DNA from: a virus
Taxonomy: Duplodnaviria > Heunggongvirae > Uroviricota > Caudoviricetes
DNA: 64,000 nt
Reading direction: 5' to 3' (one strand)
IMG/VR virus record: IMGVR_UViG_2537561946_000006
The number at the start of each line of letters is the position of its first letter. Positions within the stretch are counted from its first letter, which is position 1. A program made the position numbers. Of the stretch, positions 15,001 through 18,000 are shown piece after piece.

Positions 15001-18000
15001 TTGTGTCATTTATAACCTGAATCAGGGGAGGCCGGAATGTTATCTGGCATTTTTAGCAGAGCCTGAATGCCATAATCACGGCTCCCGGAGTTGGCCGTCA
15101 GTGGGTGACACTGGCGGTTTTTTTGTTTTTCTTTACTTTCATTTTCTGTCGGCGGTGACGGAGACATACATCAGATGGAAAAAATCACAACGGGTGTGTC
15201 ATACACCACGTCAGCGGTGGGGACGGGATACTGGTTACTGCAGCTGCTGGACAAAGTCTCTCCGTCCCAGTGGGTGGCAATCGGTGTGCTGGGGAGTCTG
15301 CTGTTTGGCCTGCTGACGTATCTGACTAACCTTTATTTCAAGATTAAAGAAGATAAGCGTAAGGTGGCGCGGGGAGAGTAGTCGATGAATAAACAATACG
15401 AACTGGTTGTAAAATGAATATTTCTAACTGAAAAAACGTTCCATGAGGTAAGAAAAGGTCACAGGCAATCAATAACAGGACGTGATGAAAGACCCTTGCA
15501 TTTGTGCGCTTTCTCTTTAGATAGCAGCAGATACTGAAAATCTGAGTTGTCGGGGAGTCAGGGATACAGCTGTGCAAGAGTTGGTCATTGTGATTCCATT
15601 GAAATCCTGTATGCCATGAAGGGCAGGATTTTATGGCTACCTGAGCTTTGGTGATAGTAAGTTGAAAATTCGCATTTTTTGCTGACATGCGTAACGAGAA
15701 TCCCATAAGCAGGGAGGACTTAATTCTTCATTAACCCATGCGTTGATATTATGTTTCAGCCGTTGAAGCATCAGCGGTGTTAATGTTGTGGTAATAATAT
15801 CCAGCGTTTTATGTGAGATCTTACCGTAAGGGTCTGCAAGAATGCTGCTTGTTGCTTCGTTATTATCTGCCATCAGAAGAAGTAACTCTGATTTAACGTT
15901 TTCTGTCATTAGTTGTAAAAATCTTCTGCGCAAACTTTCTTTACTGTTCATTTATATGGCTTCATTTGTTGTAATCTGCTGCGTCTCAAGGGATATGTTT
16001 ATGAGAGCGACCATGAGTGTTGGATTATATACCTAACATATCAAGGGATTAGAAATCGATAAATCCCCATGAACGAAAAAATAAAATACGGCCTGTCGGC
16101 TGCCGTTCTGGCGCTGATTGGTGCAGGTGCTTCTGCGCCTGAAATCCTCGACCAGTTTCTGGATGAAAAGGAAGGTAACCACACCACGGCATACCGTGAT
16201 GGTGCGGGGATCTGGACCATCTGCCGTGGTGCCATTCTGGTGGATGGTAAGCCTGTTATTCCTGGCATGAAGCTGTCAAAGGAAAAATGCGACCGGGTTA
16301 ATGCCATCGAACGTGACAAGGCTCTGGCATGGGTGGAGAAAAACATCCGGGTGCCGCTGACCGAACCCCAGAAAGCGGGGATCGCGTCATTCTGTCCGTA
16401 CAACATTGGCCCCGGTAAGTGCTTCCCGTCGACGTTTTATAAACGAATTAATGCAGGCGATCGAAAAGGTGCCTGTGAGGCGATTCGCTGGTGGATTAAG
16501 GACGGTGGCAGAGACTGCCGTATCCGTTCAAATAATTGCTACGGTCAGGTCTCACGGCGTGACCAGGAGAGCGCGCTGGCGTGCTGGGACATCGACAGAT
16601 AGCAGAATATTTTCCTGAAAAATGACGTTGGCCAACGCGGGTGGATAACACGAAATCCTGAAAACTGGTAAAACCTAAGTGAATAAAAGTAAAAACCCCG
16701 TTTGTTGGCAGCAAGCGGGGTTTTGTGTTTTCTGACCTTGAGTAAGGCAAGGGAGAAATTATGGGTAGGGAGGTACTTTCCCTGTGAGGAAGTATAAAAG
16801 ATTCTTTCTGAGGTTGTCCATTATGAAAGGCATTGAAGTGGAGACGCCAGCCAGTCTGGATTTAACAAGAGCGGCAGCTTTTGCCATTCGTATTGTGGCC
16901 ATTGCTGTTCTGGTCTGGGCAATCCGTTGGTGGTGATATGAACCGTGTTCTGTGCGTGGTTATCATTGTCCTGCTGGTGGCCTGTGGTGCGCTTAGTCTG
17001 GGGCTGAATCATTACCGTGATCACGCCATCATCTACAAAGAGCAGCGCGATAAAAAAGCCAGTGAGCTGGAGCTGGCGAACGCGACAATTACTGATATGC
17101 AGATACGCCAGCGTGATGTCGCTGCACTTGATGCCAGATACTCGAGGGAATTAGCCGATGCGAGAGCTGAAAATGAAACTCTGCGTGCTGATGTTGCCGC
17201 TGGTCGTAAGCGCCTGCGGATCAACGCCACCTGCTCCGGTACCGTGCGTGAAGCCACCGGCACCTCCGGCGTGGATAATGCAACCGGCCCCCGACTGGCA
17301 GACACCGCTGAACGGGATTATTTCATCCTCAGAGAACGGCTGATGGCAATGCAGAAGCAACTGGAAGGAGCACAGGAATATATCCGTACCCAGTGTATAC
17401 CGTGATGTTTTGTTATGAAGGTGTTACTGGTAACGTTAAGGTAATTTAACAAAGAGTCAGTTCCGGACTTTATAGTGTGCTCAGTTCATGGCCAAAAACG
17501 ATTTCTGTGATAAATATTTTGAATATTATTTACAGGTAAATGGAGTGGGGCACATGGATAGAAATATTACAATAGAGAATGAAGTATATGCCCGTATTGT
17601 ATGGGCAGAGAAGGCAAAAACACGGTAATTCCGTGTGTTGCCATGATACCTGATTGGCAGAATAGTTGTTTGGTTTTGAGTATATAGTCAGCGTTTTTTG
17701 TTCAGTAATTGCTCCCTCAAAAAATAATAAAATAAGGTGATTATTTTTGTTTATTATTTAGTTTTTTTTGTGTGTTGTTTTATTGTTTTTGCGTGGCTTG
17801 TTTTTTATTGTTATTTCATTAAGGGAAGGTAAATTCAGGATGGCAGTCTGTAGATAATCGGAGGTCACTTATGCTACATGATCACGTGGCAGAATGTCTG
17901 GAGAAAAAAGGACTGTACCGGAGAGCAGCTGAACGATGGGCAAAAGTGATGGTACAGCTAAGTGATGACCAGAAAAGAAAAGTGGCGGCACAGAAACGAG

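Follow-up and report, generated by a model that had tools for sequence, protein, structure and literature searches.

The DNA analysed here is a stretch of 64,000 nucleotides from the Caudoviricetes record IMGVR_UViG_2537561946_000006 (the window, meaning the whole of that stretch), which is late-region sequence from a lambdoid prophage of the E. coli O157 type. In its lysis cassette, the holin gene S and the endolysin gene R are separated by a gap of 687 bp, which runs from the end of the holin open reading frame (ORF) at 15381 to the start of the lysozyme ORF at 16069. The sole long ORF of this gap occupies 15637-15951 on the minus strand, spans 104 codons and is referred to here as REV. REV is a real, conserved protein gene under purifying selection, and its product has a confidently modelled, soluble five-helix fold. 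The features of the region are as follows.

Upstream of the esterase, in plus-strand order: tRNA-Met and tRNA-Arg genes
12877-14727 (+): NanS-p-type sialate esterase (DUF1737, SASA and DUF6645)
15175-15381 (+): holin S, class II, S21-type, 68 amino acids (aa); Pfam PF04971, E 1.9e-32; RefSeq "class II holin family protein"
15386-15418 (+): 5' remnant of ydfR (DUF1327), reading MNKQYELVVK and then a stop; compare YdfR of phage YYZ-2008, MKKKYELVVKG...
15421-15636: orphan AT-rich spacer, 216 bp, 40% G+C, between the ydfR remnant and the REV stop
15637-15951 (-): REV, 104-codon ORF, phrog_1853
15960-15963 (-): degenerate Shine-Dalgarno sequence GAAG, 9 nt before Met1 of REV
16024-16029 (-): TATAAT -10 hexamer, candidate REV promoter, 72 nt upstream of the REV start
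16031-16068 (+): leader and ribosome-binding region of R, also present in REV-less phages; right boundary of the cassette
16069-16602 (+): R, phage lysozyme, 177 aa; Pfam PF00959, E 7.6e-24; phrog_7 endolysin
16881-17405 (+): Rz spanin; Pfam PF03245, E 1.2e-48

A preliminary description of the window had placed about 690 bp of AT-rich DNA and a reverse-oriented ORF of 104 codons between holin and endolysin, and both statements are borne out exactly. The gap has a G+C fraction of 0.39, compared with 0.52 in the holin gene, 0.54 in R, 0.55 in nanS-p and 0.50 in the window as a whole. Among 2,000 shufflings of the gap, 37 gave an ORF of at least 104 codons, which makes the length of REV by itself just mildly unusual. 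R has an N-terminal hydrophobic stretch, as in R21-type signal-anchor-release (SAR) endolysins, and the position of Rz shows that the late operon extends past the insert.

Conservation, fold and start of REV

REV belongs to a protein family that is real and very small. Its residues 1-102 align with positions 57-158 of the 159-position PHROGs profile phrog_1853 (E 3.5e-47, 161 bits), whereas neither Pfam nor NCBIfam returned a match. The earlier remark that no family could be recognised therefore holds for the latter two collections but not for PHROGs. The profile has 56 extra N-terminal positions, beyond what the ORF in the window can supply. A word-indexed search of 5.8 billion proteins recovered 16 clusters of homologues, and an exhaustive profile search of 1.84 billion representatives recovered 21 representatives. 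Homologues were drawn from the Shiga toxin (Stx) 2 phage 86 (gp06), the phage record LC567842, several E. coli assemblies, 57 IMG/VR loci, 17 metagenome loci and more distant contigs. The gene is not new as such: strain EDL933 has the identical 104-aa protein under the name "unknown protein encoded within prophage CP-933O", it has been annotated as hypothetical ever since, and the family is catalogued in PHROGs.

Full-length members (104-107 aa) align from end to end at 21-80% identity. In this alignment P41 and G43 are invariant, and E17, K20, L57, T58, W72, E76, Q91 and K92 are nearly so. The ratio of nonsynonymous to synonymous substitution rates (dN/dS, Nei-Gojobori) is 0.13-0.39 between REV and homologues at 49-80% identity, in every pair with unsaturated dS. 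Three prophages share an S-gap-R region that is about 91% identical to that of the window. Here REV is the best-conserved segment (96.5-97.8% identity), with the holin at 73-88%, R at 87-90% and the two spacers at 89-94%.

An AlphaFold2 model built from a seven-sequence alignment, which carries out the structure prediction suggested for the 104-aa protein, is a confident five-helix bundle (predicted local distance difference test score, pLDDT, 87; predicted template-modelling score, pTM, 0.77). The helices are predicted at residues 3-26, 31-39, 47-56, 59-77 and 85-99. The protein has a mass of 12.1 kDa and a pI of 9.3, and contains no hydrophobic segment of membrane-spanning length.

The RefSeq model of REV, produced by the Prokaryotic Genome Annotation Pipeline (PGAP), is a hypothetical protein of 90 aa that starts at Met15 (WP_000138558.1). 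This model probably begins 14 codons late, and Met1 is probably the true start, because four lines of evidence converge on it. Residues 1-14 are conserved (MNSKExLRxxFLQL); Met15 is replaced by I, L or V in divergent homologues; the predicted first helix is unbroken from residue 3 to residue 26; and a Shine-Dalgarno sequence, GAGG or GAGGA, lies 7-10 nt before the same Met1 in phage 86, LC567842 and four further loci (L060, L063, L014 and L072; numbers of this form denote individual loci). The preliminary description was right that the window copy lacks a clear ribosome-binding site, since only GAAG stands at 15963-15960. Because relatives have GAGG at this place, the weak site of the window copy is no argument against the gene.

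The S-R junction as a cargo slot

The limits of the insert can be read from its relatives. DNA homology with YYZ-2008, which lacks REV, runs through the holin to 15420 and returns at 16031. Homology with phage 86 also ends at 15420 and resumes at 16034, and that with LC567842 resumes at 16053. The breaks at 15420/15421 and 16030/16031 thus define 15421-16030 as cassette-specific DNA, and it would appear that about 610 bp of foreign AT-rich DNA replaced most of a ydfR-type cargo between S and R. The S and R flanks are common to 406 of 50,697 phage records, and this insert is in none of the 406. Among bacterial genomes, 626 of the 5,426 complete ones of E. coli contain the cassette, and its identity is 99% or higher in 623 records. 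No relative turned up in two scans of GTDB species-representative genomes. The L014 locus is unmatched in E. coli genomes, which indicates that the REV family extends beyond E. coli.

The premise that holin and endolysin genes are normally adjacent is only partly true, and it fails for this phage group. The gene ydfR (DUF1327) occurs in 101 phage records, and in every locus inspected it lies in forward orientation between S and R, making the S-R junction a regular cargo slot. YYZ-2008, H-19B and many Stx1 and Stx2 phages carry ydfR at the site of REV. In the Qin prophage of E. coli, the order is essQ-ydfR-rrrQ. The ydfR cargo (gp44 in YYZ-2008) shares the slot with REV, and the window retains the first 10 ydfR codons; however, ydfR is a forward gene of PF07041, whereas REV is reverse, unrelated in sequence and without a Pfam family. 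REV has no match to PF07041, and the likeness of the insert to ydfR is limited to the 10-codon forward remnant.

A second kind of forward cargo, referred to here as PART, is a gene of 185-222 aa that converges with REV outside the window lineage, L009 and L063. Its C-terminal domain is conserved and corresponds to phrog_1085 (GRCMGxLQxAAEIE ... PPFK..W..PG..YLKGR). At their 3' ends, PART and REV share 21-33 nt in L006 and L011 and lie 9-19 nt apart in phage 86 and L014. Searches with PART gave no function and no toxin signature. Fusions of YdfR and PART also lie between S and R, with 329 aa in the Stx2a phage Stx2_95 (L073, LC567838.1; 2144-3133) and 268 aa in phage 86 (L003; 3792-4598). These fusions indicate that DUF1327 and the phrog_1085 C-domain are modules of one forward cargo gene in pinholin/SAR-endolysin cassettes.

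A tblastn-based census of about 90 loci found three arrangements. The window lineage has the order holin, reverse REV, lysozyme. In phage 86, LC567842, L005-L007 and all 17 metagenome loci, PART, with or without a preceding ydfR portion, stands between the holin and the reverse REV. In L014, L011-L013 and L072, PART and the reverse REV precede both holin and lysozyme. At every locus seen, REV is antisense within the lysis cassette. The accompanying holins belong to PF04971, PF16080 and PF05106, with an HP1-like holin in L063. The comparison of S-R spacing among related phages, proposed in the preliminary description, thus shows a slot filled with ydfR, PART or REV, and no conserved non-coding spacer.

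The nearest described counterpart of REV is gp06 (orf6, YP_794053.1) of phage 86, which is likewise a reverse gene of 104 aa, assigned to phrog_1853 and located between S and R. The two proteins are 49% identical, and the window differs in having orphan DNA in place of the convergent ydfR-PART gene. This orphan spacer (15421-15636) has zero matches in the 50,697 phage records, sensitive blastn included, and is found in E. coli genomes exclusively together with this cassette. It is 92-94% identical in the relatives at about 91%, near a neutral rate, and is probably the 3' untranslated region of REV. Derivation of the spacer from a decayed PART gene was rejected, as tblastn showed no similarity to PART and blastn gave no match. 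An overlapping ORF of 120 aa on the minus strand (15344-15706) was also rejected, as it has no family, is unconserved and contains a stop in L062.

A palindrome of the form CGCCAGYG N5-7 CACTGGCG also recurs among these loci. It precedes the holin in the window; in phage 86, L004, L014, L011-L013 and L072 it is located some 75-85 nt before the start of REV. The copy in phage 86 separates REV from R, with a run of five T behind it in the direction of REV. Possible roles are those of a terminator, an operator or a recombination joint moving with the cassette.

Expression and possible roles of REV

The two options raised for the gap in the preliminary description, a moron or non-coding DNA, can now be weighed. 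The ORF is conserved as a protein, is under purifying selection, has a confident fold and lies antisense in the lysis cassette of many phages, all of which favours a moron; the non-coding option is rejected, as relatives show neither a conserved non-coding spacer nor an unconserved ORF. The presence of the insert is variable at one site among close relatives, and its base composition (39% G+C) differs from that of its flanks (52-55%). Such a combination, an extra AT-rich gene in opposite orientation whose presence varies at a fixed site, is typical of morons. Accordingly, the gap is read here, with moderate confidence, as a moron-type accessory cassette with one real protein gene and its own candidate promoter, whose probable expression in the lysogen would be opposed head-on by late transcription.

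A perfect minus-strand TATAAT (16029 to 16024) closes the cassette-specific DNA on its right side. The window, L060, L009, L005 and L063 all retain it as TATATAATCC, although these loci are otherwise only 73-78% identical in DNA. REV may be transcribed leftward from its own sigma-70 promoter that uses this hexamer. Expression would take place in the prophage state, when transcripts from pR' end early, and after induction Q-antiterminated late transcription would override REV head-on. Expression from the insert had been suggested to be insulated from late transcription, which is not supported: because R and Rz lie downstream and the gap contains no predicted plus-strand promoter, late transcription must cross REV antisense to reach them, so that REV faces it head-on. 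In the other direction, the lack of a terminator in the 3' spacer implies that the REV transcript probably runs antisense across S. The best terminator-like hairpin on the minus strand (15215-15186; free energy, dG, -12.8, followed by a run of six T) falls within the first 40 nt of S.

Several observations weigh against this reading. The TATAAT hexamer has no recognisable -35 element, and a scan with the sigma-70 consensus found zero promoters in the gap. Between the REV stop and the holin there is no convincing minus-strand terminator. The ribosome-binding site of the window copy is weakened, with GAAG at the same spacing where close relatives show GAGG. In addition, since the family is very small, its constant position might stem from linked inheritance and not from a functional tie to lysis.

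Among lambdoid phages, bor of lambda is a moron encoded against the late operon, and phage 86 has a Bor-like gene likewise opposite to its late operon. Bor is an exported lipoprotein with a known phenotype, and its gene lies downstream of Rz. REV and morons of the lambda bor type are alike in their deviant base composition, variable presence at one site, opposite orientation and presumed promoter of their own in the lysogen. Unlike Bor, REV is predicted to be cytoplasmic and is located between S and R; its promoter is a candidate, and its 3' spacer shows no terminator.

Searches directed at function returned nothing that assigns one, and the roles suggested in the preliminary description (regulator, immunity or anti-defence gene) gained no support from Pfam, NCBIfam, PADLOC or the PDB sequence and fold comparisons. 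PADLOC-DB 2.0 contains no defence profile (hidden Markov model) that matches REV or PART at E values up to 0.1. The best hit of a REV profile among PDB sequences was a designed protein (E 0.008), with no meaningful match, and Foldseek comparison of the REV model with PDB and BFVD gave no E value below 0.8. REV has no match to a lysis-category PHROG, has no transmembrane segment and lies on the strand opposite to S, a combination unlike that looked for in an antiholin or lysis regulator. Literature searches covering ydfR/DUF1327 with holin, WP_000138558.1 and the S-R cargo of Stx phages yielded nothing on REV. Because the protein is basic, 12 kDa and helical, and bears no signature of an enzyme, a DNA-binding protein or a membrane protein, its likeliest mode of action is binding to another protein in the cytoplasm. 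Since REV is strictly tied to lysis cassettes whose holins are of different families, a component of the lysis cassette is the first-guess target.

REV also persists where lysis genes do not. It is intact beside a lysozyme gene interrupted by the insertion sequence IS3 in E. coli O157:H7 PV15-279 (L001, 6688-8349), and it is intact with decayed R and Rz in GCA_946059415.1 (L009, 2800-4400), where the lysozyme is reduced to 60 aa. This hints that REV is kept independently of lysis function in prophage remnants. Together with the 623 nearly identical records, its survival beside dead lysis genes fits a benefit at the level of the lysogen better than a purely lytic role, and such a benefit is plausible for a gene that is very common in Shiga toxin-producing E. 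coli.

A role in lysis itself is nevertheless possible, if unlikely. REV would then be a cytoplasmic antiholin-like factor that neutralises leaky holin in the lysogen, perhaps aided by antisense RNA over S, until late transcription shuts it off and licenses lysis. At every locus REV adjoins the holin or sits between holin and endolysin, with several holin families; the protein is soluble, small and helical; and no terminator parts REV from S, the best hairpin being that within the 5' end of S. T4 RIII and P1 LydB are small, soluble antiholin cofactors linked to holins, and offer a possible functional analogy; they share no sequence or fold similarity with REV, and their genes are co-oriented with the lysis genes, whereas REV is on the opposite strand. 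Being encoded against the late operon sets REV apart from known antiholins, it has no similarity to any lysis regulator, and its retention beside dead lysis genes would be needless for a pure lysis regulator.

Quite unlikely, in our view, is a scheme in which REV and PART make up a level of control in lambdoid lysis cassettes that has gone unrecognised, with REV expressed in the lysogen to check the holin and endolysin, or the late PART, until head-on transcription silences it. If true, such a level of control would be interesting; on its own, REV is routine, one more uncharacterised moron in the heavily decorated late region of an enterohaemorrhagic E. coli prophage. Decidedly improbable is the related proposal that REV is the orphaned half of a two-gene module, an antagonist (immunity protein, antidote or regulator) of PART that may, now that PART is lost here, protect against the PART of incoming relatives. 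The convergent pair is present in every lineage but that of the window, L009 and L063, and its 3' ends overlap or abut. However, the pair is separable both ways: Stx2_95 has its PART-containing 329-aa gene followed directly by R and no REV, and PART is missing beside REV in the window lineage, L009 and L063. An obligate toxin-antidote pair is ruled out on these grounds. Furthermore, REV is under purifying selection in lineages without PART (dN/dS 0.185 between the window and L009), and PART itself has neither a known function nor a toxin signature.

It is very improbable that RNA is the main product, with the leftward transcript restraining, by antisense action, the S-R part of the late transcript, and with a secondary place for the ORF. 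The head-on orientation to late transcription, the conserved minus-strand -10 and the lack of a terminator before S would suit such an RNA, but the protein sequence is constrained, Shine-Dalgarno sites are kept in relatives, and the 3' spacer evolves about neutrally. A search of Rfam with positions 14000-18000, at E values up to 1, found no RNA family in the gap; its sole match, rimP-leader (E 0.63), lies outside it. Finally, a decayed remnant with a chance ORF, which could point to the roughly 2% of shuffles with an ORF of at least 104 codons, to the weak ribosome-binding site of the window copy and to the PGAP annotation of just 90 aa, is effectively refuted by full-length conservation down to 21-49% identity, a dN/dS well below 1, the confident fold and the standing of REV as the best-conserved segment of the S-R region.

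The S-R junction of S21/R21-type cassettes holds a small cargo repertoire of ydfR, ydfR-PART fusions, PART and REV, which provides an entry point to the role of accessory proteins in pinholin/SAR-endolysin lysis.

Neighbouring elements and further cargo

The same late region carries nanS-p, a PerC/Pch homologue and probably small RNA (sRNA) genes. In the intergenic region between esterase and holin (14728-15174), a terminator-shaped hairpin, CCGTCAGTG-GGTGA-CACTGGCGG, occupies 15093-15119 on the plus strand, with a run of seven T that extends to 15129; the hairpin is 56 nt before the holin start. A 2026 bioRxiv paper locates the prophage sRNA genes pasA and pasC precisely there, after the sialate esterase gene and before the operon of holin and lysozyme, and names YYZ-2008 (NC_011356) as a representative phage (Zhu, Shabalina & Storz, doi 10.64898/2026.05.13.724894). 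Given this published position, the window may also carry an sRNA of the PasA/PasC type.

A second variable cargo slot lies inside the lysis cassette, between R and Rz, where YYZ-2008 and phage 86 carry an anti-repressor (ant) gene. In the window this gap (16603-16880, 278 bp) contains a strong terminator-shaped hairpin of 15 pairs at 16692-16724 on the plus strand. The rimP-leader match is also in this gap, on the minus strand, and is probably due to chance.

Just downstream of Rz, AT-rich DNA (32-36% G+C) at 17400-17900 is followed by the bulk of a gene for a PerC-family transcriptional activator of 104 aa (17871-18185, plus strand; PF06069, E 3.8e-44). It probably belongs to the Pch regulators of the locus of enterocyte effacement that are carried by prophages. 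It is another AT-rich moron of the same late region. Upstream of the esterase, two plus-strand genes, at 10445-11494 and 9313-9855, place a DNA methylase (PF01555) between a Q-like antiterminator (DUF1133/Phage_antitermQ) and the tRNA genes; the methylase is further cargo of the late region.

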